Shown here: positions 1,473-64,000 of the stretch, piece after piece
Layout of the letters: each line of letters starts with the position of its first letter
Numbering within the stretch: the stretch's first letter is position 1
Assembly: GCA_018969615.1 (NCBI GenBank)
Contig: JAGWYA010000005.1
Span: forward strand, 1,286-65,285
Length of the DNA stretch: 64,000 nucleotides
Source of the DNA: Patescibacteria group bacterium
Lineage (GTDB): Bacteria > Patescibacteriota > Minisyncoccia > UBA6257 > 02-FULL-45-10c
Direction: 5' to 3'
The notes under the pieces: model-generated
Databases searched by the model: none
What the model was told of the DNA's origin: nothing
What the model saw: the letters and a program-made list of their open reading frames with translations, nothing else
Position numbers and translations under genes: made by a program

Positions 1473-1529
1473 AACAAGAACCCCTTGTAGCAGTATGGAA
1501 TTTCAACACTGCTGCAAGGGGTTCTTGTT
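1473..1529. repeat. 22-bp-stem hairpin with a 13-nt loop ATGGAATTTCAAC (reverse complement GTTGAAATTCCAT). Member of hairpin family 1. Lies between convergent genes, so it is a possible bidirectional terminator.
   Basis: Left arm aacaagaaccccttgtagcagt (1473-1494) pairs with right arm actgctgcaaggggttcttgtt (1508-1529), with one G.U wobble. The loop core TTGAAATTCCA matches the loops at 13182, 13234 and 13380. Confidence 0.7.
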
Positions 1530-2570: not shown

Positions 2571-2642
2571 GTCCTCGTAGCTTAATGGATAAAGTATCTG
2601 GCTTCGAACCAGATGATGGGGGTTCGATTCCCTCCGAGGACA
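2571..2642 (+). tRNA. tRNA-Arg (anticodon TCG); no encoded CCA
   Basis: Acceptor GTCCTCG/CGAGGAC. D-stem GCTT/AAGT. Anticodon stem TCTGG/CCAGA with loop CTTCGAA, anticodon TCG. T-arm GGGGG-TTCGATT-CCCTC. Discriminator A. Confidence 0.85.
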
Positions 2643-2880
2643 CAAGCACAGGAGATATCACTATGCCATGGTATAGTGATATCTCCATATGTTCTCTGAG
2701 GAATCGAACCAGCCGCACCCCGTATCAGGAAGGAATGGGAAACCGAAGGTGTCCCAGACGGGGGTCGGGGTGCGGCGGAGGTTCGAGTGAGCGAGCGGGC
2801 CGTCTGGCCGCGAGTGAAACTGACATTCCCCGAGGACACAAGCAATATATATCTCACTATGCTTTGGCATAGTGAAATAT
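2626..2880 (+). repeat. tandem duplication of the tRNA-Arg 3'-end. The 15-mer CCGAGGACACAAGCA occurs at 2634-2648 and 2829-2843. Each copy is followed by a related palindrome: TCACTATGC-N-GCATAGTGA.
   Basis: Direct comparison of 2626-2690 with 2821-2880. The first palindrome, GGAGATATCACTAT..ATAGTGATATCTCC, is a perfect 14-bp stem. Confidence 0.7.
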
Positions 2881-2922
2881 ATACGTGTTCATTGAAGGGA
2901 ATCGAACCATCATAAAATATGA

Positions 2923-2967
2923 GGTCTTACAGAACAGCGCCGGGTTCTTATGCTGTTCCGTAAGACC
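2923..2967. repeat. hairpin family 2 member (a): 16-bp stem GGTCTTACAGAACAGC/GCTGTTCCGTAAGACC. Reverse-complemented loop is ATAAGAACCCGGC.
   Basis: Inverted repeat with one mismatch. The loop matches the conserved 13-nt loop GTAAGAmCCCrGy seen at 3021, 18516 (rc) and 18599. Confidence 0.65.
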
Positions 2968-3001
2968 ACCTATTTTATTTTTTACTGACGAGCCGGGAAA
3001 G

Positions 3002-3052
3002 GGCATAAACGTTTTCCGCCGTAAGACCCCGGTGGCGGAAAATGTTTATGCC
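3002..3052. repeat. hairpin family 2 member (b): 19-bp stem GGCATAAACGTTTTCCGCC/GGCGGAAAATGTTTATGCC. Loop GTAAGACCCCGGT.
   Basis: Inverted repeat with one mismatch. 13-nt conserved loop. Confidence 0.7.
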
Positions 3053-3121
3053 TTGATAGCGGCGAGTGGCGCTGTTCCCAGAGGACATCGCTGTATTATT
3101 CGGTATACTAAAAGAGAAGTT

Positions 3122-4591
3122 ATGGAAAAAATTGAAGAAAAAAAAGAGGTTCGAACTATCGCCGCGGTATTGGAACATGCGGGCTTTGAGGCGTATTTGG
3201 TCGGCGGCTGTGTCCGCGATCTTTTGCTCGGCCATACGCCGAAGGATTGGGATATCGCAACGAACGCAACGCCGGACCAGGTCCAGCAGTTGTTTCCTGA
3301 CAGCGTCTATGAGAATGCGTTCGGCACCGTCGGCGTGAAGACCGATTCTGAAGATCAGACACTGAAGATCGTGGAGGTTACGACCTATCGCATCGAAGGG
3401 AAGTATTCCGATATGCGCCATCCGGACGAGGTTCGCTTTGCGTCCACGATCGCCGAAGATCTTTCCCGCCGCGATCTTACGGTGAACGCGATGGCGATGG
3501 ATCTCCGGGCCGGCGCGGCTCATGAGATCATCGATCCGTTCCAGGGGCGGCAAGACCTTCGCGCGCGCGTGATCCGCGCGGTCGGCGATCCCGAGGCGCG
3601 GTTTCAGGAAGATGCGTTGCGTATTTTACGCGCGGTGCGGTTCGGGGCGCAGCTGGGATTTACGCTGGACCATGCGACCGAGGCGGCGATGAAAAAACAT
3701 GCGGGATTACTTGAAGCGATCTCGAAAGAGCGCATCCGGGATGAGTTCATGAAGATGATCATGACGGATCACGCGCATGAGGCGATCCGCTTGATGGAAA
3801 AGGATGGAATATTGAAATATGTGCTGCCGGAATTGGAAGAGGGTGTGGATGTCGGACAGAATAAGCATCATATCTACAGCGTGTTCGAGCATAATGTGCG
3901 GGCGCTTCAGTATGCGGTCGAACAGCATTTTGATCTGGATGTGCGCATTGCGTCGCTGTTGCATGATGTCGGAAAACCGCGGAGCAAGCGGGGGGAAGGA
4001 CCGGATTGTACGTTCTACGGTCATCAGGTCGTCGGTGAGCGGATGGCGCTTCAGATCCTTGACCGTTTGCGGTTTCCTAAGGACATGACGGAGCGGATCG
4101 CGCTTCTCATTCGCGAGCATATGTTCGTCTATGATCCCGATACGGTGACCGATGCCGGCGCGCGCCGCCTGGTGCGCCGCGTCGGAAAGGAGAATTTGGA
4201 AGCGCTTTTCCAGGTTCGTGAAGGCGACCGGATCGGTTCCGGTGTTCCCAAAGCGCAGCCGTACCGGTTGCGTCATTTGAAGTTTCGTATTGAAAAAGTG
4301 AGCAAGGATCCGGTGAGCGCAAAGATGTTGAAAGTGAACGGCGCGGACGTGATCACGGGGGCGGACATGGCTCCGGGACCGAAGGTTGGTTTTATTCTCG
4401 CGATCCTTTTAGAGGAGGTGCTTGATGACCCGTCGCTGAACACGAAGGAGATACTTATGGATAAAGTGCGCCAGCTGGCTCAGCTGGATGAGGTGAAGTT
4501 ACGGGAGATGGCGAAGTTCGCCAAGCGTTCCGCTGACGACGCGCAGACCCGCATCGAAGAGGAAATGAAAAAGAAATATTTCGTCCAGTAG
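3122..4591 (+). CDS. cca: CCA-adding enzyme: tRNA nucleotidyltransferase / poly(A) polymerase family, with an HD domain
   Basis: N-terminal nucleotidyltransferase motif GGCVRDLLLG...DWD. HD-domain motifs (HHIYSVFEHN..., LLHDVGKP). The ORF-track start at 2885 runs through non-coding hairpins, so the start is trimmed to ATG 3122 (MEKIEEKK). Confidence 0.88.
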   Translation: MEKIEEKKEVRTIAAVLEHAGFEAYLVGGCVRDLLLGHTPKDWDIATNATPDQVQQLFPDSVYENAFGTVGVKTDSEDQTLKIVEVTTYRIEGKYSDMRHPDEVRFASTIAEDLSRRDLTVNAMAMDLRAGAAHEIIDPFQGRQDLRARVIRAVGDPEARFQEDALRILRAVRFGAQLGFTLDHATEAAMKKHAGLLEAISKERIRDEFMKMIMTDHAHEAIRLMEKDGILKYVLPELEEGVDVGQNKHHIYSVFEHNVRALQYAVEQHFDLDVRIASLLHDVGKPRSKRGEGPDCTFYGHQVVGERMALQILDRLRFPKDMTERIALLIREHMFVYDPDTVTDAGARRLVRRVGKENLEALFQVREGDRIGSGVPKAQPYRLRHLKFRIEKVSKDPVSAKMLKVNGADVITGADMAPGPKVGFILAILLEEVLDDPSLNTKEILMDKVRQLAQLDEVKLREMAKFAKRSADDAQTRIEEEMKKKYFVQ

Positions 4592-5448: not shown

Positions 5449-5522
5449 CGGACTGTAGTATACTGGCAGTATACACGCTTCGGGTGCGTGAGGACTGGGT
5501 TCGATTCCCAGCAGTCCGACCA
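5449..5522 (+). tRNA. tRNA-Pro (anticodon CGG); CCA is encoded
   Basis: Acceptor CGGACTG/CAGTCCG. Anticodon stem CACGC/GCGTG with loop TTCGGGT, anticodon CGG. T-arm CTGGG-TTCGATT-CCCAG. Discriminator A followed by CCA. Confidence 0.8.
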
Positions 5523-5523
5523 T

Positions 5524-5559
5524 AAAACAAAGAGGCTCACTCGTGAGCCTCTTTGTTTT
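5524..5559 (+). terminator. rho-independent terminator after tRNA-Pro
   Basis: Perfect stem aaacaaagaggctcac / gtgagcctctttgttt with loop tcg. Confidence 0.75.
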
Positions 5560-5732
5560 ATGTGTTTGCGCCTCGCTGGGAATTGAACTCGGGAAGGGGG
5601 TCGGGAAAACGGAAGTTTCCCCGTAGCGGAGGTAGCCTCGCAGGGCGAGGCGTTGGAACCGAATGGTTCCAAAGAGCGCGAGCGTCCTGTCAGTGAGATC
5701 CAGCGAGCGCGAGGGTTCTAGGAGCGCAGCGA

Positions 5733-9701: not shown

Positions 9702-9896
9702 CAGGGATTTTAGATCTGTATGGTGTGGGGGCAAGTTGCCGAGTCAGGAGTTCCCTGCCTGCTCGCCTCGCTGACACTCCGGCGAAGCGGGCCGGCAGGC
9801 AGGGATTCTTCTCAGGTCCACAAATTCTAAACCCGCCAAACGGCGGGTTTAGAATTTCTTGAAGAAACCCGAGAGAATCGAGCTCTTTTATTTTTT

Positions 9897-12417: not shown

Positions 12418-13101
12418 ATGGTAATACAAACATGGACGGATGTGCTGATGGCTTCGTTTCAGAGCGTCTGGGCGCAGATCGCTGCCTGGCTGCCGTCGCT
12501 GATCGGAGCGTTGGCGCTGTTTATCATCGGTTTGATCATCGCGGCAGGGATCAGTTCGGTCATTGAGCGGGTTTTTCGGGCATTGCGGGTTGATGTGGCG
12601 CTTCGGAAGCTCGGGATCGAAGAGTTCCTTCGCCGCGCCGATCTGGAGCTGAATTCGGGATATTTCTTTGGTCAGTTGATGTATTGGTTCATCGTATTGG
12701 CGTTCCTGCTTGCCGCATCGGATATCCTCGGATTTTTTGCCCTTTCAAGCTTTATTCAGGATGTTCTGCTCTATTTGCCGAATGTGGCAATTGCCGTATT
12801 GATCATGATTGCCGCATTGGTCATTGCCAATTTGGCGCTTCGCCTGATACGGGCGTCGGTTTTAGGAGCAGAGATGCATTCGGCTCGGTTCCTTGCTTCA
12901 GCGGCATGGTGGGCGGTGATGATCTTTGGCATCCTTGCGGCATTGATGCAGCTGGGGATCGCCGTGGCGATGATCAATACGATCGTGACCGGCTTTGTAG
13001 CAATGATCGCGCTCGCCGGAGGGCTTGCCTTCGGCCTTGGCGGGAAGGATTTTGCGGCGCATTTCCTCCAAAAGCTCCAGGATGAAATAGAAGGGAAGTA
13101 A
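12418..13101 (+). CDS. multi-pass membrane protein with an internal repeat; possibly the conserved TM-helix-repeat / mechanosensitive-channel-associated family
   Basis: Six hydrophobic helices. Two similar halves. Acidic C-terminus. Confidence 0.55.
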   Translation: MVIQTWTDVLMASFQSVWAQIAAWLPSLIGALALFIIGLIIAAGISSVIERVFRALRVDVALRKLGIEEFLRRADLELNSGYFFGQLMYWFIVLAFLLAASDILGFFALSSFIQDVLLYLPNVAIAVLIMIAALVIANLALRLIRASVLGAEMHSARFLASAAWWAVMIFGILAALMQLGIAVAMINTIVTGFVAMIALAGGLAFGLGGKDFAAHFLQKLQDEIEGK

Positions 13102-13155
13102 CAAAAGGCCGCAATATGCGGCTTTCCGAAAGAACGTTACACGGCAATAGTATTG

Positions 13156-13418
13156 AAAGCAGGGCAGGTGTATATTTCTGTATTGAAATTCCACACAGAA
13201 ATATACACCTGCCCTGCTTTGACGAATTTCTGTATTGAAATTCCGCACAGAAATAGATATCCACCCTGTTCTTTTGGTGGTATATATGGTGTTACCGGGA
13301 AAGAAAAAGTAAGTTTTTGCTCTGTTTTTAAAGAATGTTTTTGGATGACAAAGAAAGCAAGGCAAGGACACATTTCTGTATTGAAATTCCACACAGAAAT
13401 TTGTCCTTGCCTTGCTTT
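13156..13418 (+). repeat. array of three family-1 hairpins sharing the 13-nt loop ATTGAAATTCC(A/G)C and the inner stem ATTTCTGT/ACAGAAAT. Hairpin A (13156-13220) has a perfect 26-bp stem. Hairpin B (13224-13252) has only the 8-bp inner stem. Hairpin C (13354-13418) has a 26-bp stem with one mismatch. The outer stems of A and C differ by compensatory changes.
   Basis: Left and right arms aligned by hand. A: aaagcagggcaggtgtatatttctgt / acagaaatatacacctgccctgcttt. C: aaagcaaggcaaggacacatttctgt / acagaaatttgtccttgccttgcttt. Confidence 0.85.
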
Positions 13419-13462
13419 AACTTGTTTTTTGATGTGGCATGATTTTCCATCCGCTTTTTTCA

Positions 13463-13492
13463 TTGACACCGCCGCCGTTTTTCGAGTACAAT
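13463..13492 (+). promoter_or_regulatory. sigma-70 promoter (TTGACA-18-TACAAT). The -10 ends 7 nt before the ATG at 13500, so the downstream regulator mRNA is probably leaderless.
   Basis: TTGACA at 13463-13468 and TACAAT at 13487-13492. No SD sequence. Confidence 0.6.
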
Positions 13493-13499
13493 AGAATCT

Positions 13500-14234
13500 A
13501 TGTTGTCGTCCGAGCAGATCACCGGAAAAGCGCGCGAGATCGCATACGCATTGGTGCGCGTTTCTTTTTATATCAAACGGAGCGATCTGCAGATCCGCAT
13601 CGAGCGCAGTGCGTTCGAGCTCCTGGAACAGGCGGCGCGCGTGAGCGTTGACTCGTCGGCGAAGACGGTGATGGCGGCATTGTCATCGATCGCGGTCCTG
13701 GATGCGCTGGTTCGCCTTGCGCATTCCATTTATGAGATCGAACCGGTGAACGCAACGATCCTGGTTCGCGAGCTTGATGCGTTGCATACGGCAATTCGGC
13801 AAACAGCGAACCTTGATGAGCGATTGCCGAATCTGGAAACATTTTTTTCGCAGGACAATGCATTGCCGAATGGATCGGAAGAAAAGAATGACGAGAGCGC
13901 AAGCGATGCGAATATGACAAAGACATACGGTGCCCAGGGCGATCAGAAAGAAGGGCATCAGGCAATTGCCGAAAAGTCAGAAGCAACCAGGCCGTCGGAA
14001 AAGAACCAGGCGCTCAATATCGCACTTCGCCAGTCATCTATTATAGAGACGATCCGCTCGGGTGCGGACTCGAGCCGCCGGTTAAAGGATATCCTGTCTG
14101 AGTTCAATGATGTCAGCGAGCGAACGATCCGCTATGACCTCCAAAAATTATGCGAACGGGGGGTGATTGAGCGGGTGGGGAACGGAGGCCCGGCGACCTA
14201 CTATCGGATCCCCGTGGAGGTATCGGTCCAATAG
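13500..14234 (+). CDS. two-domain regulator: an N-terminal four-helix-bundle domain (23S-rRNA-intervening-sequence-protein-like) fused to a C-terminal winged-helix HTH (DeoR/ArsR-like)
   Basis: N-terminal pattern ...AREIAYALVRVSFYIKRSDLQIRIERSAFELLEQAARVSV...LDALVRLAHSIYEIE. C-terminal ERTIRYDLQKLCERGVIERVGNGGPATYY. A low-complexity acidic linker lies between them. Confidence 0.65.
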   Translation: MLSSEQITGKAREIAYALVRVSFYIKRSDLQIRIERSAFELLEQAARVSVDSSAKTVMAALSSIAVLDALVRLAHSIYEIEPVNATILVRELDALHTAIRQTANLDERLPNLETFFSQDNALPNGSEEKNDESASDANMTKTYGAQGDQKEGHQAIAEKSEATRPSEKNQALNIALRQSSIIETIRSGADSSRRLKDILSEFNDVSERTIRYDLQKLCERGVIERVGNGGPATYYRIPVEVSVQ

Positions 14235-18375: not shown

Positions 18376-18404
18376 TTTTCAGAGCTTGAGACTCTGAAAG
18401 CTTA

Positions 18405-18446
18405 ACCAAAACCCCTCCCTTGTGGAGGGGTTTTTGGTTTCCTTAT
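18405..18446 (+). terminator. rho-independent terminator after the surface-protein gene
   Basis: Stem aaccaaaacccctccc/gggaggggtttttggtt with loop ttgt, followed by a T-run. Confidence 0.8.
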
Positions 18447-18551: not shown

Positions 18552-18578
18552 CTTGCCCGGAGAACTCGTAGAGGGAGA

Positions 18579-18631
18579 AGCAGATCATTTTTTATAACGT
18601 AAGAACCCGGTGTTATAAAAAATGATCTGCT
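18579..18631. repeat. hairpin family 2 member (c): perfect 20-bp stem AGCAGATCATTTTTTATAAC/GTTATAAAAAATGATCTGCT. Loop GTAAGAACCCGGT.
   Basis: Perfect inverted repeat. 13-nt conserved loop. It is oriented opposite to member (d), which lies 28 nt upstream. The (a)/(b) pair at 2923-3052 has the same arrangement. Confidence 0.75.
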
Positions 18632-18687
18632 GCTCACCTGAGCGCTTTGTGGAATTTAAGTACCACTTTTGGTACTATGTTTTAGTT

Positions 18688-46413: not shown

Positions 46414-48383
46414 TCACAGCTTTTCTTACAATTTTCTTTACGGCGGGCCTGCTGTTCTTCGGGTATGTGTTTACGGTCTTTGTTTTGGATGAGCGGAGGA
46501 TCTTCGCGGCGGTCCCGCTCTCTGCGGTCATCGGATTCGGTGCGTATGTCTTTTTCTTGAATGCGGTTTCATATTTTGTTCCGGTGGGAATAAGTTTCTT
46601 CGCTGTTTTTTATGCGTTGCTTGCGGTGGCGCTCGGCATATATTTTTTTCGGCGGAAAGACCCGGATAGATTAACGCTTGGCGGATTAACGTCGCGTCAG
46701 CTCAAAATGATCTTGATTATTGCCGCGCTGATCTCGATGGTTTCAGGAATCGTTGCGGTACGCACTCTTGAGCTGGACGATATGTCTCTGACTCATTTGT
46801 CGCTTGCATCCACGATCGCTCAGGGGAATTTCCCGGTCATGGATCCTTCGGCCCCTGACCATCCGATGGGATATCATTATGCGCCCGATCTCTTGGTTGC
46901 CGCTACCGGGCAGGTAGTCGGTCTTCCGCTCTGGTTGGGATATGACTACCAGACGTTCCTTTTCAGCGGCTTAACATTCCTGCTTGCATTTGTGCTTGCG
47001 TGGTACCTTTCCGCATCATATTTAGGTTCTTTACTTGCCGCGCTTTTCTTTACGTACGGCGGAGGGCTTCTTTGGCTTAACTTCACCGCCGGCATCAGTC
47101 CGCTGTGGCAGAAATTTGTTCTGCATCAGAATGTTTTTGCGCCATGGAAATTTTTATGGTTTATGACCTATCCGCGGCTGAATACCAGTTTTATCTATGC
47201 GATGAATAATCATAGCATCGCTTTGGGAACGCCGGTCATGCTCCTCGCGCTCTACGCTTATTTCCGGGCACTCGAATTCCGCGGTTGGAAGTCGGTGAAG
47301 TTTTTGACCCTTGCCGGGCTTTTATTCGGCTATCTGGCATTGAGCGTTGAAACGAATTTTGCAGTGCTTTTAGCGGGATTTTTCTGCGTTCTGGCGGCTG
47401 TGACAGCGGTTCATGTTTTGCAAATGCGCGGAAAATTTTCCGGCATTGAACTTCCTGGCGGTAAGAAAACACTCTTCATATTCACAGGGATCGTATCTAC
47501 GGTGGGACTCGGGATCGCATTCTATCAGGGTGGGATATTTTCAACTTTGGGTTCGGGTGGCGCACATACGTTTGGGTTAGCAACGAAGTTCTGGGAGATC
47601 GGTTTCAATGGCGGAACGACAACGATCCTAAGCTGGGAATTCTTGAAAGAGTTTGGGTTCCCGTTCATTTTGTTCTTTCCAGCGGTCCTATTCTATCGGA
47701 AGGATAAGAAGATTCTGTTTTTGGGGCTGCTCGCCGCTATTGCGTTCAGCGTTCCATTTATCGTTCATTACGTTTCACGTCCGTGGGAGATGAACAGGTT
47801 CTTTGCTATGGCGACGCCGCTTTTCGCGTTCATTGTTGGCCTGTATCTTGGCAATAAACTTGAGGCGCCCGGCCGCACGCGGCGATCGAAGGTCGTGTTA
47901 TGGAGCGTGGGGGCGCTGGTGATACTGTCCGGTGTTATGTTCCAGGCGGTGTCGGTATTAACGCCGTTCGGCAGCATCGGAAAGTTCGATCAGCCGCTTT
48001 TAGCGATGCCTCCGGCGCCGAGTTCCGCTGATCAGCCTGCGTATGCTTGGATCGAAAAGAACACGACGATCAAGGACAGGTTCTTCCCGTTCAGCGTTGA
48101 TTTTATTCGTGATACCGGACGATTCACGCCGGGTTATTTTGAGAATGGCGAGATAAACACATACCCCAATGAAATAGCAGCGTATGATGCTATCATGAAT
48201 TCATGTTCTGCGAGGGCTTTGGAGCAGTTAAATATAGACTATGTGTATATTTCATCGTTTACGCCTAATGGGAATTTGAGCGTCGATTGCTTGAATCAAT
48301 TAAAAGCGAATCTTGTCTATCAAGGAGATGGTGGTGAAGGGGAAACTAGTAAGATCTATCGTGTTAGTTATAACCGACCATAA
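46410..48383 (+). CDS. large polytopic membrane protein (657 aa). A possible glycan polymerase or GT-C-fold enzyme.
   Basis: More than 12 TM helices. Translationally coupled to asnB (ATGA overlap). No family assigned. Confidence 0.55.
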   Translation: MITAFLTIFFTAGLLFFGYVFTVFVLDERRIFAAVPLSAVIGFGAYVFFLNAVSYFVPVGISFFAVFYALLAVALGIYFFRRKDPDRLTLGGLTSRQLKMILIIAALISMVSGIVAVRTLELDDMSLTHLSLASTIAQGNFPVMDPSAPDHPMGYHYAPDLLVAATGQVVGLPLWLGYDYQTFLFSGLTFLLAFVLAWYLSASYLGSLLAALFFTYGGGLLWLNFTAGISPLWQKFVLHQNVFAPWKFLWFMTYPRLNTSFIYAMNNHSIALGTPVMLLALYAYFRALEFRGWKSVKFLTLAGLLFGYLALSVETNFAVLLAGFFCVLAAVTAVHVLQMRGKFSGIELPGGKKTLFIFTGIVSTVGLGIAFYQGGIFSTLGSGGAHTFGLATKFWEIGFNGGTTTILSWEFLKEFGFPFILFFPAVLFYRKDKKILFLGLLAAIAFSVPFIVHYVSRPWEMNRFFAMATPLFAFIVGLYLGNKLEAPGRTRRSKVVLWSVGALVILSGVMFQAVSVLTPFGSIGKFDQPLLAMPPAPSSADQPAYAWIEKNTTIKDRFFPFSVDFIRDTGRFTPGYFENGEINTYPNEIAAYDAIMNSCSARALEQLNIDYVYISSFTPNGNLSVDCLNQLKANLVYQGDGGEGETSKIYRVSYNRP

Positions 48384-48386
48384 ATT

Positions 48387-49382
48387 ATGAAAGAGAAATT
48401 GCTTTTTTTGGTTAAATTATCTATCAGCATATTTTTGCTTTATTTAATTTTTACTAAAATAAGTTTTACAGCAATTTTTGATTCATTGCGCCATGCGGAC
48501 CCCACTTATTTTTTGATCGGATTTTTGACATTATTTATCGCGCTTGTTTTGAATACTAAGAAGTGGCAGCTTTTACTCAGATCCTTAAATTTTAATGAAG
48601 ATTTGCTTTCGCTTATAAAACTTAATTTAATAGGGACTTTTTATGGGACATTTCTTCCGGGCGGACAGATGACGGGTGAGGTTGCAAAATGTTATCGCAT
48701 ATCAAAAGGCAGGGATGATAAGCATAAGATTATTTTTTCTGTAGCCATGGATAGATTAATAAGCCTGATAACTTTTGTTTTTGTAGGGGCTGCGGCTTTT
48801 ATGATTGCGAGACCCAATATCCCAATGTATAGAGAGATCTTATCGGTCTTTATTGTATTTTTGTTTGCGTCGTTTCTGACCCTTTCCCTTTTTAGTGAAA
48901 AATTATTTTTTGTGATCTCTGGTTTACATAAGTATTTGTTGGGCGGGAATGAGAGTCATATAATATACCGCATATCACATCGAGCAATTGATACATTGTT
49001 CTCTTATAGGAATTCTGGTCGCACACTTTTCTATGCCTTTGTTTGGGGATTGGGATTTCAGCTCATGAATACATTGGGTACATATTTTTTCTCGTTGGCG
49101 GTAAGTGCCAACTTGCCGTTCATAGAACTGTTGTGGGTTAATACTTTAGTAAATATTGTAGTTGTCTTGCCAGTGGCTATTATGGGGCTCGGTGTACGCG
49201 AGATCAGTTTTGCATACCTTCTTTCTCTATTTGGAATTGCAATTTCAAAAAGCGTCAGCTTATCTTTATTAATTTTTACCGTAGCGCTTTTTAGCGCGAT
49301 TGTAGGCGGGGGTATTGAGTTGCACGAAGCTTTTATTAAAAATAATAAGTTGAATTCTGTGTCGAATAATAAAATTGCATGA
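48387..49382 (+). CDS. flippase-like membrane protein (lysylphosphatidylglycerol-synthase TM-region / UPF0104 family)
   Basis: FLVKLSISIFLLYLIF...W..LLRSL...GTFYGTFLPGGQMTGEVAKCYRISK is a characteristic block. AT-rich gene. Confidence 0.7.
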   Translation: MKEKLLFLVKLSISIFLLYLIFTKISFTAIFDSLRHADPTYFLIGFLTLFIALVLNTKKWQLLLRSLNFNEDLLSLIKLNLIGTFYGTFLPGGQMTGEVAKCYRISKGRDDKHKIIFSVAMDRLISLITFVFVGAAAFMIARPNIPMYREILSVFIVFLFASFLTLSLFSEKLFFVISGLHKYLLGGNESHIIYRISHRAIDTLFSYRNSGRTLFYAFVWGLGFQLMNTLGTYFFSLAVSANLPFIELLWVNTLVNIVVVLPVAIMGLGVREISFAYLLSLFGIAISKSVSLSLLIFTVALFSAIVGGGIELHEAFIKNNKLNSVSNNKIA

Positions 49383-50530
49383 AAATATTATTGGTAAATT
49401 ATGAGTTTCCTCCCATAGGCGGCGGAGGGGGGAGGGTTTCTTATGAGCTAGTGAAGCACCTTAAAGATGGGGCGCACTTTGATGTGTTAACTTCTTCTTT
49501 TCCTAAAGAAAATATTTCCCCCGACCCCATCGCCGACGTAACGATTTATCCAGTTGCGTCTTATCGAAGGTCCATACATCAGGCGGGGGCACTTGGAATG
49601 CTAACATTTTTATTTTTTGGCTATTTTCGTTTCAAGAAATTAATAAGAAATAATGAATACGATCTAATCCACTATTTTTTTAGCGTACCCACGGGCCTCC
49701 TGTCTTTTTTTCAACCAAAGCATATCCCATATATAGTTTCATTAAATGGCGGAGACGTCCCCACGTACAATAAAGGGGAGATGGCTGTATTCCATAAACT
49801 GATCAAATTTTTAAATAAAAGAATTTTAAAAAATGCTGCAGCCGTTACGGCGGTCAGTAGGGATCTAGGCGAGGTTGCAAAACGAGAATTGGAATTAAGA
49901 AATTACTCGGTTATCCATAACGGCATTGATGTCGCTAATGTAAAAAGGCGATCCGAAGGGATTAAGAAAGGAACGGACAGATTGAAGATTGTTTGCGTTT
50001 CCCGACTCGCTCCTTGGAAGAAGATCGATCTATTGATCGAGGCTATTAAAGATATTGATGTAGATCTTGTGATTATTGGGGAAGGCGGATCAAGAGAAAG
50101 CCTTCAGAAATTGGTTGGAGATCTGAATTTAGAAAGGCGTGTTAGTTTTAAGGGGTCGGTCGGGCACGATGAGGTTAACAAATATTTGGATGAATCAGAC
50201 GCATTCGTACTTCCATCTATAGGTGATTCTTTCGGTATAGTGTTTTTAGAAGCAATGGCGCGAGGCGTGCCCGTTGTAGCGGCTCGAGCCGGCGGCGTCC
50301 CCGAAATTATACAGGATAATTATAGTGGCATACTGGTGCCTCCCAATGATATTTTGGATTTAAAGAATGCTATACTGAAACTGAAGAATGACCCTGCTTT
50401 GAGGCGTAAGTATTCTCAAAATGCCCTAAAGACAGTCGAAGAGAGATTTTCTTGGCAAAAGATTTCAGGTGAGTATTACGCTTTATATCAAAAAGTCATA
50501 GAGCATAAGAATAATCACTCTAATGAATAG
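49379..50530 (+). CDS. GT4-family glycosyltransferase
   Basis: MKILLVNYEFPPIGGGGGRV N-terminus. ...GIVFLEAMARGVPVVAARAGGVPE. Confidence 0.88.
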   Translation: MKILLVNYEFPPIGGGGGRVSYELVKHLKDGAHFDVLTSSFPKENISPDPIADVTIYPVASYRRSIHQAGALGMLTFLFFGYFRFKKLIRNNEYDLIHYFFSVPTGLLSFFQPKHIPYIVSLNGGDVPTYNKGEMAVFHKLIKFLNKRILKNAAAVTAVSRDLGEVAKRELELRNYSVIHNGIDVANVKRRSEGIKKGTDRLKIVCVSRLAPWKKIDLLIEAIKDIDVDLVIIGEGGSRESLQKLVGDLNLERRVSFKGSVGHDEVNKYLDESDAFVLPSIGDSFGIVFLEAMARGVPVVAARAGGVPEIIQDNYSGILVPPNDILDLKNAILKLKNDPALRRKYSQNALKTVEERFSWQKISGEYYALYQKVIEHKNNHSNE

Positions 50531-51275
50531 TCCTAGCTACAGAAAGATTTTATTAAAGCAGTACCTGTCTGTTTTTAAGAATCTGCACGGTGATAATAAA
50601 AAGAGGCAGCGCGCTGATTTGGAAAAAAATATAAATTTCTTTAGGCATAATTATTTAAATTTATTGCCTCTTAAAAAGGACGTTGCCATATTAGAGATCG
50701 GACCAGGCATGGGGCAGTTTCAGGTATTTTTAAAACGTGAAGGTTATGTGCATGTTCGGGGCATAGATGGATCGGAAGAAATAGCTCAATATTGCAAGGC
50801 AAATGACCTCCATGTTTCTTATGAGGAAAATTTTATCGACTTTTTTAATCAGGAGGAAAATAAGAATACTCTTGATCTGATTATTGCTAATGACATCCTA
50901 GAACATTTCACGAAGCAGGAGCTGGTTGATCTTTTAGGGGCGATGAAAGGGGCTTTGCGAGATGGCGGAGCTATTATTGCTAAGGTTCCAAACGCCTCAG
51001 CGTGTTTCGTTGCTACAAATAATAGGTATGGCGATTTTACGCACGAGCTTATGTTTACTGAGTTTAGTTTGCAGCAGCTTTGTGGAGCTTTGGGTTTCAG
51101 TCGTATAGAGTTCTTTGCCCCGAATCTTTTTTGTTTCTATTATAATCCGCTGAACTATATTGGACTTTCATTAAATTTCCTTTTGAAATTAATTCAGATT
51201 GGCATACATAGACTCAATGGAAACTTTGATGTAAATATAGTTACGAATAACATTATTTTTAAACTATATAAATAG
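50523..51275 (+). CDS. class I SAM-dependent methyltransferase
   Basis: ILEIGPGMGQF...LRDGGAIIAKVPN. Confidence 0.8.
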   Translation: MNSPSYRKILLKQYLSVFKNLHGDNKKRQRADLEKNINFFRHNYLNLLPLKKDVAILEIGPGMGQFQVFLKREGYVHVRGIDGSEEIAQYCKANDLHVSYEENFIDFFNQEENKNTLDLIIANDILEHFTKQELVDLLGAMKGALRDGGAIIAKVPNASACFVATNNRYGDFTHELMFTEFSLQQLCGALGFSRIEFFAPNLFCFYYNPLNYIGLSLNFLLKLIQIGIHRLNGNFDVNIVTNNIIFKLYK

Positions 51276-51314
51276 CTTTTTGCATTTTTCAGAATTTTTT
51301 ACTTTTGGCTTTTT

Positions 51315-53114
51315 ATGCATCATTTACGATCTAGTATGGAAGTGATCAAGAGGCATCACTTGGTATTGTCATTCGCTTTAATTGTAGGCCTTATTTATGT
51401 CGGGCCATATTTATTTTTCGCATACCATCTCGGCGCCGGTTATCAGGGGATTAATATTACCCGCGCGCCAGACGAAGAGGGGTATCTTACGATCGTCAAT
51501 TCGCTCGCCCGGCGGGGAATAGTGGGAGATCCGTATATCTTTGAATATAGGGATCTGGGGAATAACGTGAACTATTATAGTATCGAATATTTTTTGGCGG
51601 CGACCGCGAACGCTTTCCACGTCATGGTTCCTGATCTGATCCTGGGGCTTAAGTTTCTCGCCCCCGCTGTTCTTTTTGGGGTTGTGTATCTTTTTACCTT
51701 AGAGCTGATGGGGTCGTCAGGCGGGGCGCTTTTCGTTGCGTTGCTTGTTCTTTTGGGGAATGAAGTTGCGCGTACGGGACTTGCTGCGATCCCCGCCCTT
51801 TTTTCCGGAACAGTCGCCTCTACCGATTTTTTGACCTATGCGCGTCCGGTGAATCCGGCGGAAAGTTCCATTCTCTTTTTTGCAGTGCTGTGGCTCATTT
51901 TGAAGTTATACAAAGGCGAACGGAAGTTCGGATCGCTGCCTGCCGCCGCTGCGGTTGGTTTTGCGGTCGGGGCGATGTCGTACATTTATTTTTATTTTTG
52001 GGCCTTTCCTCTGATCTTATGCGGCGTAGTTTTACTGTATGATCTCTTTACGCGAAATAAGGAAGGAGCAAAGCGATTTTTTGTGGCGTTGGCCGCAAGC
52101 GCCTTCGCGGCGGTACCGTTCTTTTTTAATACAGCGGCTCTTTTCCTGGCACCTCCCGCGAACGGCGATTTCGGTGCGCCGCTCCAGAAGGCCTTTACGC
52201 GGACGCATCAGATCATTCCTGAGAAAACCATTTTGCTCCCATTGGTCGTTTTCGCGGTTTTGTATGCGCTGTGGAAATATTCCAAAGAAAAGTGGGGTGA
52301 AGAAGCCGGCCGGTTTGTGAAAAAATATGCTTTTGTCGCTTTGCTTCTTATAACGGGGATCATCGCTTCGAACGAGCAGGTGATCACGGGCATTGAGGTC
52401 CAGCAGCATCATTTCCATTTTTATACCAATATTCCGATGTTGCTGATCGCCGTGGGCATCATGGTGTATGAACTGGTCCGATTGATTCCGCACTGGTGGC
52501 GCGTCACGGCCTTAGGCGGTATTTCTCTTTTTGTGGTCACGTTTGCGATCCAGATCCAGGCTTCATCGTATGCGGCATGGAAACAGGATTTTATTTCTTA
52601 TCAGCGGTATGCCCCGGTCTTTTCGTGGCTGCGATTGAATAGCGGGACGGATACTGTGGTATATGCCGATCAAACAATGTCCGAGATGATCCCGATCTAT
52701 ACGCAGGATTATACATATGGATCGCTGCACGCGGCCGCGTATCCTGTCCCGGTCGTGCGTCTGGAGCATAATTACTTTATGACGCTTTTTTTGCGGGGGG
52801 TTACGAAAGATGATGCGCTTGTGTATCTTTCGGATCCGGAGCATCGGAACGAGATGGGGCAATATATTTTTGAAGGACAGTATTGGAAAGACATGTGCGG
52901 ATCATACGGGTGTTTTCCCGATGCGACATTCAAGAGTTTGGTAAATGATTATGTTTCATTCCTTGGCAATTCTTTTGAGACAAACTTAAAGGAGTATAAA
53001 GTTAACTATATTGTGTGGGACATGGCCAATGATCCAGAATGGAATTTGGGCGGTTACGTATTTCTTAAAGAGGTATATTCTGGAGAACAGATTAAAATAT
53101 TTAAGGTTAATTAA
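51315..53114 (+). CDS. polytopic membrane protein with a C-terminal extracytoplasmic domain (599 aa). Possibly a glycan-processing enzyme or a GT-C-fold protein.
   Basis: About 12 TM helices, then a ~170-aa soluble domain. No family assigned. Confidence 0.55.
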   Translation: MHHLRSSMEVIKRHHLVLSFALIVGLIYVGPYLFFAYHLGAGYQGINITRAPDEEGYLTIVNSLARRGIVGDPYIFEYRDLGNNVNYYSIEYFLAATANAFHVMVPDLILGLKFLAPAVLFGVVYLFTLELMGSSGGALFVALLVLLGNEVARTGLAAIPALFSGTVASTDFLTYARPVNPAESSILFFAVLWLILKLYKGERKFGSLPAAAAVGFAVGAMSYIYFYFWAFPLILCGVVLLYDLFTRNKEGAKRFFVALAASAFAAVPFFFNTAALFLAPPANGDFGAPLQKAFTRTHQIIPEKTILLPLVVFAVLYALWKYSKEKWGEEAGRFVKKYAFVALLLITGIIASNEQVITGIEVQQHHFHFYTNIPMLLIAVGIMVYELVRLIPHWWRVTALGGISLFVVTFAIQIQASSYAAWKQDFISYQRYAPVFSWLRLNSGTDTVVYADQTMSEMIPIYTQDYTYGSLHAAAYPVPVVRLEHNYFMTLFLRGVTKDDALVYLSDPEHRNEMGQYIFEGQYWKDMCGSYGCFPDATFKSLVNDYVSFLGNSFETNLKEYKVNYIVWDMANDPEWNLGGYVFLKEVYSGEQIKIFKVN

Positions 53115-53120
53115 GAAATA

Positions 53121-54179
53121 ATGGTCGTCCATTTTTTTACCAAAGGCGATAAAAACGTAGCAAGTTCGCGTTACAGGGGCTATTATTGGGCTGAAGGCTT
53201 GATTCGAGCCGGCCATCACGCCGATGTATATCCGATCAGTGCCGACTTTAAAGCGACGAATTCTTTTGGTAAAAATATCAGCCTTTTTTTCAAATATCTT
53301 CGACTCCTAACCTCTTTTCGGGGGAAAAATGAAGCGATCTTCCTCCAGCGTACCGTTTATAATAAGTATTTCTTTTTAGACATACTTTTGGTCCGTCTGT
53401 TTTTGGGAAGAAAGTATATTTTTGATATGGATGACGCGGTTTTTGAGCATTCATTTTTAAAAACATGGATATTAGTGAAACTGGCAAGCGCGGTGACATG
53501 TGGTAGCATGTTTATTTTTGAATGGGCGAAAAAGCATAATAAAAATTCATTTTATTTTCTGAACTCACTTCCACCGGATATTTATGCCTCTCGTCATGGA
53601 TCGGGCTCCGATATCCCGGTGATCGGCTGGGCAGGCGATGGTCCGGCACATTTTGAGAACTTGAAGTTGCTCCCCCCGATCTTCGAACGGCTTATTGCTG
53701 ATGGACTTCGTTTTAAGTTCACTCTTATCGGCGCATTGGGGGATGGGCGCGTGCATGACCTATTTGCCTCTGTTAAAGGATTAGATTACGCGATCATCGA
53801 TCGCTTGGACTGGTCGGATCCCCGCAATGTAGCTCGTGAGATCGCGCAGTTCGATATTGGGATCATGCCGATGATAGAGAACCGATGGAATAAGGCGAAG
53901 TATTTTAAGACTCTGGAATATATGGCATGCGGAGTTCCTGCGCTCGCGGGGGATTTTGGTGAAAATACGCATATTATTGAGAATGGCGAAAATGGATTTC
54001 TTCTGAAAGATGGCGAAGAATGGTATCAGAAATTAAAGCTTCTTATTTCGGACAAAGATCTGAGAATAAAACTTGGAAAGAGAGGACTGGAAACTATTAA
54101 AGAGCGTTTCTCGCTCGAAAAAGCGACCGCGAGATTAATAAACACGCTTATTCAGTCGCATCTGATCGAAAAGGAGTAA
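53121..54179 (+). CDS. group-1 (GT4-like) glycosyltransferase
   Basis: C-terminal LEYMACGVPALAGDFGENTHIIENGENGFL, the typical GT-B C-domain. Confidence 0.72.
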   Translation: MVVHFFTKGDKNVASSRYRGYYWAEGLIRAGHHADVYPISADFKATNSFGKNISLFFKYLRLLTSFRGKNEAIFLQRTVYNKYFFLDILLVRLFLGRKYIFDMDDAVFEHSFLKTWILVKLASAVTCGSMFIFEWAKKHNKNSFYFLNSLPPDIYASRHGSGSDIPVIGWAGDGPAHFENLKLLPPIFERLIADGLRFKFTLIGALGDGRVHDLFASVKGLDYAIIDRLDWSDPRNVAREIAQFDIGIMPMIENRWNKAKYFKTLEYMACGVPALAGDFGENTHIIENGENGFLLKDGEEWYQKLKLLISDKDLRIKLGKRGLETIKERFSLEKATARLINTLIQSHLIEKE

Positions 54180-63881: not shown

Positions 63882-63923
63882 TTTTTATTTTAATTCTTTT
63901 AGTTTTTTCTCCCCCTATTATCC
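63882..63923. repeat. 42-bp perfect palindrome CTCCCCCTATTATCCACGCATATGCGTGGATAATAGGGGGAG. It contains two inverted DnaA-box-like 9-mers (TTATCCACG) and is embedded in AT-rich DNA with outer inverted repeats (ATTTTAATTC/GAATTAAAAT).
   Basis: Direct reading. The consensus DnaA box is TTATCCACA. Confidence 0.8.
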
Positions 63924-64000
63924 ACGCATATGCGTGGATAATAGGGGGGAGGAGGCGGATAAGATAAAGATCGAATTAAAATAAAAAGGCATTGATAAAG

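Follow-up and report, generated by a model that had tools for sequence, protein, structure and literature searches.

The DNA analysed here, a 64-kb stretch of a Patescibacteria genome referred to below as the window, carries an array of three hairpins (A, B and C) in the non-coding segment 13102–13499, which separates a mechanosensitive-channel-like gene (12418–13101) from the gene of a DeoR-type regulator. A fourth hairpin (D) is situated between the stop codon of a peroxiredoxin gene (1443) and a canonical bidirectional terminator (1545–1570). All four had been described in an earlier note made from the sequence alone, and each was found where that note had placed it. The downstream gene had been called leaderless, which is plausible since the -10 box of its predicted promoter ends 7 nt before the ATG. 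Its product had been called a winged-helix regulator, in agreement with the domain found at its C-terminus. This protein is 100% identical to an NCBI 'Patescibacteria group bacterium' protein and has homologs in Paceibacteria-like genomes, where it is widely conserved. The rest of the window contains tRNAs, housekeeping genes and a large glycosyltransferase cluster. Inside this glycosyltransferase/methyltransferase cluster, the G+C content of positions 48001–54000 is 0.385–0.45 versus about 0.54 elsewhere, and this piece may have been horizontally acquired. The coordinates of the hairpins, including three additional members of the family (E, F and G), are collected in Table 1.

Table 1. Hairpins with a 13-nt loop and the regulator gene neighbouring A–C, in window positions.
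Feature	Position	Strand	Description
Hairpin A	13156–13220		Perfect 26-bp stem; class 1 loop ATTGAAATTCCAC, i.e. A-TTGAAATTCCA-C on the + strand
Hairpin B	13226–13254		Class 1 loop ATTGAAATTCCGC; 8-bp inner stem alone
Hairpin C	13354–13418		Class 1; 26-bp stem with one C.T mismatch (25/26)
Hairpin D	1473–1529		Class 1; 22–24 bp stem unrelated to A–C
Hairpin E	18579–18631		Class 2 loop G-TAAGAACCCGG-T (GTAAGAACCCGGT); perfect 20-bp stem
Hairpin F	2923–2967		Class 2 loop G-CCGGGTTCTTA-T (GCCGGGTTCTTAT), opposite orientation; 16-bp stem
Hairpin G	3002–3052		Class 2 loop G-TAAGACCCCGG-T (GTAAGACCCCGGT); 19-bp stem, one G.T pair
DeoR-type wHTH regulator gene	13500–14234	+	C-terminal DeoR-type winged helix; neighbour of the hairpins
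Regulator promoter-like site	13463–13492	+	TTGACA-18-TACAAT (11/12); outside the repeat

Hairpins A–D share the unit GT-R-TTGAAATTCCA-Y-AC, which corrects the earlier description of the repeat. In D, whose stem contains one T.G pair and one bulged A, the loop on the + strand reads A-TGGAATTTCAA-C, and the core TTGAAATTCCA is therefore found on the minus strand. The arrangement ATTTCTGT-N13-ACAGAAAT was observed three times, compared with 0.00 expected from shuffled sequences. The predicted folding energies of A, C and D range from -39 to -49 kcal/mol as RNA (z of -9 to -13 against dinucleotide shuffles) and from -24 to -30 kcal/mol as DNA (z of -9 to -13 against shuffled sequence), whereas the 8-bp stem of B gives only a weak fold (-8.2 kcal/mol, z -2.1). 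The 26-bp complementarity claimed for A and C proved perfect in A and is interrupted by a single mismatch in C. The reported compensating changes between their outer stems were seen as well, at 6 of 26 stem positions, all of them compensated on the opposite arm.

B is a truncated duplicate and not a minimal unit. It is the second of two copies created when 'core plus right arm' was tandemly duplicated (52 nt; repeat family D1, spacing 52); its left arm is lost, and its right flank up to about position 13277 is a degenerate right arm. In a sister species, this locus holds a single hairpin (L034 822–884), which is the ortholog of C and makes A and B duplications specific to the window. Upstream of the regulator, the array thus consists of one ancestral hairpin, C, to which local duplications added A and then the truncated B. 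The earlier note had allowed for the hairpins being simply local duplications; this holds for the A-B-C array, but the same loop core is also present at the D locus.

A scan for long inverted repeats revealed seven hairpins with a 13-nt loop in the 64-kb window, all of the form R-N11-Y and all within the first 19 kb. At least two classes of apical module are present, TTGAAATTCCA and TAAGA(A/C)(C/T)CCGG, the latter being defined by E, F and G. In both classes the 11-mer is bracketed by A...C or G...T, and neither 11-mer occurs in exact form in the window outside such a 13-nt loop. The two 11-mers match in their purine/pyrimidine pattern at 10 of 11 positions, which, as a post hoc comparison (p ~0.01), is treated as a lead only. 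The stems of the family range from 16 to 28 bp. That of E can be extended to 18573–18637 with 24 of 26 positions paired, and that of F contains one A.C mismatch and is extendable via an internal loop. The hairpins occupy either a convergent gap or the space that separates a terminator from the following promoter. Hairpin E lies past the terminator of a 1209-aa gene and upstream of a PMT_2 gene, C ends 45 nt upstream of a -35 box, and the 3′ end of G is about 28 nt upstream of the -35 box of the predicted promoter (3082–3109) of the gene for the CCA-adding enzyme. The remaining long hairpins in the window have loops of 3–6 nt, with one exception of 21 nt. The canonical terminators at 5521–5562, 9817–9862, 18404–18438 and 63911–63948, as well as those on a relative's contig (L161), combine unusually long stems of 15–23 bp with loops of 3–6 nt and A-rich/T-rich flanks, and these long-stem terminators of the lineage look bidirectional.

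The surroundings of F and G show an organisation of their own (window 2571–3122; L158 2500–2960 in the sister species). The 3′ end of a tRNA-Arg gene, CCGAGGACACAAGCA, is repeated at about 2829–2845 and partly at about 3076–3088. A palindrome, CACTATGC-N4-GCATAGTG, follows both the tRNA 3′ end (2651–2686) and the copy at about 2829 (2846–2883), and none follows the partial third copy. A G+C-rich piece of 140 nt (about 2690–2825) is present in the window only, and the sister species instead possesses an extra 137-nt module with an additional class 2 hairpin, H′. These tRNA-Arg modules look like tandem remnants of integrative elements. The non-coding segment 2846–3090 with hairpins F and G shares about 95% identity with the sister species, compared with a difference of about 35% at third codon positions, and a search of this segment against Rfam returned nothing. 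The segment might serve the CCA-adding enzyme gene as a structured RNA or leader; recent exchange of an element would be another explanation. An open reading frame starting from GTG 2885 (2885–4591) overruns both hairpins; judging from the relative, the gene for the CCA-adding enzyme actually starts at ATG 3123, behind the promoter-like site 3082–3109.

Sequence collections were scanned with exact loop-plus-closing-pair patterns and gave only matches without long stems. In viral contigs, the loop pattern gave 32 matches, all with stems of at most 4 bp and attributable to chance; the patterns of hairpins F and G gave 0 each, and that of the tRNA-linked palindrome gave one chance match inside a coding region. 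Genome contigs yielded at least 100 loci, with a longest stem of 6 bp and no relative of the source organism among the matches listed, which constitutes a weak negative. The 17 matches in metagenome contigs showed a flanking complementarity of at most 10 bp with up to two mismatches, and blastn of 13140–13430 against plasmids and phages returned no match. Since the matches from the collections lacked long stems, the family was found through protein-anchored ortholog loci only. It appears to be lineage-specific, with all of its members coming from this Patescibacteria lineage. In the sister species, one contig (L033; 1–30, 5140–5169) begins inside the C ortholog and stops about 10 nt short of the expected E ortholog. 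Assemblies of the lineage break at the hairpins, and copies are therefore probably underrepresented in metagenome-assembled genomes.

The protein-anchored loci gave access to the sister species in four independent samples and to a second relative. The window and the sister species differ at 32–36% of third codon positions. Between C and its ortholog the 13-mer loop is inverted. The inner 8 bp are the same, as are 10 of the 11 outer bp (18/19 in total), while the 7-bp middle block is replaced in a fully compensated manner. In total, the stem differs at 6 of 26 positions, and its flanks can hardly be aligned. The middle block of C (13365–13371/13401–13407, AGGACA with TGTCCT) stands end-for-end in the ortholog (L034 833–839/867–873, TGTCCT with AGGACA), for which a simple inversion of the whole inner segment gives no explanation. 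At the D locus, the 11-mer of the sister-species ortholog (L158 985–1045) is likewise inverted and 6–7 of 25 stem positions are changed and compensated, and in the second relative the hairpin is absent altogether. Both class 1 ortholog pairs are therefore inverted between the two species. In contrast, F and G are kept in the sister species in the same orientation, and H′ is without a counterpart in the window. Within the window, the loop of F has the reverse orientation of those of E and G when read on one strand. Overall, seven loops point one way with respect to the + strand and five the other; all neighbouring genes have the + strand as their sense strand, and its GC skew is positive. The consensus loop orientation was identical in three to four independent samples of the sister species (L033, L034 and L164; L158–L160).

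Inversion aside, the four orthologous loops differ between the window and the sister species by one substitution in 52 nt. For the loops of C and D alone, 0 of 26 positions changed at 35% divergence, corresponding to p ~1e-5 as calculated from the divergence at codon positions. The orthologous stems diverge by 23–28%, in clustered and compensated blocks. These comparisons indicate that the apical module is under purifying selection and is kept intact in either orientation, and that the stems diverge near the neutral rate yet stay complementary. The earlier proposal that the hairpins, including D, form a family in which the loop is conserved and the stems change but stay complementary is thereby supported.

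To compare the stems, the hairpins were aligned on the loop, their left arms were compared over 22 positions, and chosen pairs were shuffle-tested (primes mark the hairpins of the sister species). The stems of A, C and C′ agree with those of G and G′ in the same register at 10–13 of 22 positions (p 0.0004–0.003 for the tested pairs), and those of D and D′ agree with that of H′ at 14–15 of 22 positions (p ~1e-4). Other stem pairs agree at 3–10 of 22 positions, and the shuffle-tested non-homologous pairs gave p-values of 0.09–0.89. The likeness within these two groups, each of which joins class 1 and class 2 hairpins, indicates that homologous stem scaffolds bear either loop class. Among 11 hairpins, 92.6% of the stem cells are paired, compared with 34–46% when the partner is slid, and 22 of 22 stem pairs vary on both sides; these pairing statistics are partly circular, as the hairpins were picked for being palindromes, and the ortholog comparisons are the informative ones.

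In the earlier note, the compensated changes were read as classic covariation that implies selection on the hairpin structure. This conclusion was overstated, since the changes between orthologs match those expected from template switching. Template switching during replication makes stems perfect, introduces compensatory changes of several bases and inverts loops completely, with no stepwise selection involved (PMC8794818, PMC8604942), and minute inversions of hairpin loops are well known in plastid spacers (PMC2903610). At both the C and D loci, loop inversion was found together with clustered, compensated stem changes, which is the signature described for template switching (PMC8794818). 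The covariation is hence no proof of a selected RNA structure, and template switching appears to be its best explanation. However, template switching cannot shield a sequence from substitution, and the near-invariance of the loop thus shows that selection acts on the loop itself.

Based on these observations, it seems reasonable to regard the hairpins as lineage-restricted, REP-like palindromic intergenic repeats whose apical loop is recognised strand-independently, probably as DNA, by a putative factor encoded outside the window; we assign this reading a probability of roughly 0.4. The elements would be able to form hairpins or cruciforms, and template switching between their arms would keep the stems perfect, remodel them and flip the loops. 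The loop would be recognised at the DNA level, either in a hairpin extruded on one or the other strand or as duplex DNA. Its conservation points to a putative reader that would act in trans, for which propagation, recombination and topological or transcriptional insulation between genes are candidate roles. The stems are mostly Watson-Crick perfect, which means that both strands are foldable. The number of stem G.T pairs on the + strand (about 6–7) compared with that of A.C pairs (about 4) shows no significant strand bias. Moreover, the class 2 loop is not palindromic, so that an RNA of one strand would display two different loops. Since the orientation of the loop is irrelevant and Watson-Crick complementarity exists on both strands, recognition that is strand-independent, and hence of DNA, is favoured with moderate confidence. 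Annotation of the 38 window proteins with Pfam detected no transposase, HUH nuclease, recombinase, reverse transcriptase, RNA-guided protein or cas gene that could serve as the partner. The low copy number, with 7 copies in 64 kb, and the conservation of the loop, unlike that of the stem in REPs, both speak against a REP-like nature.

The elements could instead act as RNA, i.e., as long hairpins in untranslated regions or read-through transcripts with a loop that is read as RNA, and serve as back-up bidirectional terminators, insulators, 3′-end stabilisers or sites for RNase III or a loop-binding protein. We consider this less likely than recognition as DNA, but its probability is substantial and several observations are in its favour. 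Hairpin D and its ortholog are located between a stop codon and a canonical terminator, from which it follows that D is transcribed as part of a 3′ UTR. In addition, D′, F, H′ and C are preceded by A-rich and followed by U-rich runs, as in the long-stem terminators of the lineage, the RNA folding energies given above are strong, and a few G.T pairs occur on the + strand. However, the loops flip both between orthologs and between neighbours on the same strand (F versus G) with their sequence intact, whereas an RNA made from one strand would show different loops. A–C, F and G are located after terminators and upstream of promoters. The terminator scan calls none of the seven hairpins, although the neighbouring canonical terminators are called by the same scan; the loops are 13 nt long, and the U-runs are incomplete, with part of them falling within the stems. 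When searched against Rfam 15 at gathering and permissive thresholds, only four tRNAs reached threshold, and the sub-threshold miRNA-precursor-like matches of the hairpins reflect their shape. Of the earlier proposal of a structured sRNA or hairpin-RNA family, the hairpin family stands, while its RNA nature is weakened by loops that remain intact whichever way they lie on one coding-sense strand. A kissing-loop interaction of loops with opposite orientation was rejected as well, as the loops of F and G are complementary at 10 of 11 positions in the window and at 9 of 11 in the relative, without a compensating change. The D and C loops are mutually opposite in both species, as would be expected half the time by chance. 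Alternatively, the hairpins might be neutral by-products, whereby template switching in a repair-poor genome would maintain functionless palindromes and the shared loops would merely reflect recent common descent. The loop inversions and the clustered compensated changes do match the signature of template switching, and the presence of the hairpins varies among close relatives. Nevertheless, such an origin is distinctly unlikely in view of loops that changed at one position in 52 compared with about 35% at neutral sites, and of the 18 of 19 inner and outer base pairs of C that are conserved between barely alignable flanks. The same loops also occur on stems without detectable similarity, which suggests old paralogs with conserved loops.

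Being remnants or sites of mobile elements is a further and quite improbable origin, in which the hairpins would be attachment, origin or packaging hairpins of small integrative elements or rolling-circle replicons, and the loop a nicking or recombination site. The tandem modules downstream of tRNA-Arg that hold F, G and H′ would fit this, since their number differs between the two species and each starts with the tRNA 3′-end repeat and the palindrome described above; a conserved loop on a variable stem is also characteristic of the origins of HUH nucleases. On the other hand, A–D and E adjoin neither tRNA genes nor such repeats, the window lacks a Rep, integrase or transposase gene, and no match was found in the phage, plasmid and viral collections. 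Finally, the hairpins had been proposed to serve the neighbouring DeoR-type regulator as a set of operators or cruciforms. Their proximity to this gene, the half-sites TTTCTGT-N13-ACAGAAA and the distance between C and the -35 box, which is fixed in the two species (45 and 47 nt), are consistent with such a role. Nonetheless, the regulator orthologs on L036, L037 and L038 (about 55% identity, same synteny) lack a hairpin with a 13-nt loop in the roughly 54 kb covered, and the operator reading was therefore rejected as highly improbable. Furthermore, conservation concerns the loop rather than the half-sites, the same loop occurs in D on a different stem at the unrelated peroxiredoxin gene, the same scaffold with a different loop is found upstream of the CCA-adding enzyme gene, and the number of hairpins upstream of the regulator varies from one in the sister species to three in the window. 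A promoter inside the hairpins was likewise excluded, as the TTGAAA of the loop lacks a -10 box at a distance of 16–18 nt and the promoter scan finds 13463–13492 only. Directly upstream of the -35 box, a block TTTTCCATCC(G/A)CTTTTTTCA at 13440–13462 (L034 905–930) is near-identical in both species and represents a better candidate than the hairpins for an autoregulatory or UP element.

Among the possible extensions of recognition as DNA, one is unlikely but would be of particular consequence: the hairpins could be the sites of a new loop-specific enzyme or system in Patescibacteria that reads extruded DNA hairpins irrespective of strand, with two interchangeable 13-nt cassettes (R-N11-Y) that can be exchanged or flipped between shared scaffolds. 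If true, this would be a new kind of DNA element, defined by its loop rather than by its stem. Small palindromic repeats are usually defined by their stem, and here the selected part appears to be the loop, which survives inversion and is carried on unrelated or shared scaffolds. Selection on the loop suggests that this uncultivated and little-known group of bacteria possesses a reader specific for it. Identification of a partner protein would provide insight into the organisation and insulation of intergenic DNA in the reduced genomes of the candidate phyla radiation, or else reveal a new mobile or recombination system. The results also carry a methodological warning. Perfect hairpin covariation is normally taken as proof of a functional RNA, but it can arise from template switching, and covariation should therefore be kept separate from the functional claim.

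A comparison with known systems shows that the resemblance to a CRISPR array, namely a partly palindromic 29-nt unit that occurs three times, is superficial, as the earlier note had already judged. The repeats start at 13174, 13226 and 13372 at irregular distances of 52 and 146 nt, complementary arms take the place of 'spacers', single copies are dispersed elsewhere, and Pfam annotation of the 38 window proteins revealed no cas genes or leader. Integron attC sites were rejected because the stem bases (AAAGCA...TGCTTT, AACAAG...CTTGTT and others) lack RYYYAAC...GTTRRRY boxes and the window encodes no integrase. The consensus sequences of dif/Xer-like, parS, CIRCE, Rex, CRP/FNR and LexA sites did not fit. 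In HUH stem-loop origins, such as those of circoviruses and geminiviruses with their nonanucleotide loops or IR-II of pT181, a sequence-specific loop is combined with a less constrained stem, and the loop is read as single-stranded DNA, for which the strand of the host chromosome is irrelevant. The present hairpins differ from these origins in that the window holds no nuclease gene, no known nick motif is recognisable and multiple chromosomal copies exist.

The hairpins maintained by template switching in rRNA and miRNA genes (PMC8794818) and in yeast (PMC8604942), together with those that show minute loop inversions in the plastid trnH-psbA spacer (PMC2903610), share the perfect stems, the compensated clusters and the loop inversion. 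In those studies, however, they are the outcome of a mutational process, whereas here a repeat family is concerned in which the flipped loop stays under purifying selection both ways. The hairpin repeats of sponge mitochondria (PMC2800124) are similarly dispersed and invade intergenic DNA, but they belong to another host and, according to the abstract of that study, no rule of a conserved loop on a variable stem is reported. Known invertons are far longer than the 13-nt loop that is inverted here. In their logic the hairpins resemble the REP/BIME elements (REPINs) of proteobacteria, which are also short palindromic intergenic repeats, occur singly or clustered and in several classes per genome, are lineage specific and show varying copy numbers and compensated stems. 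The window encodes no RAYT (Y1 HUH transposase). REPs conserve a stem palindrome with a 5′ GTAG motif and reach hundreds of copies, whereas in the family described here about seven copies in 64 kb carry a conserved 13-nt loop on differing stems of 16–28 bp.
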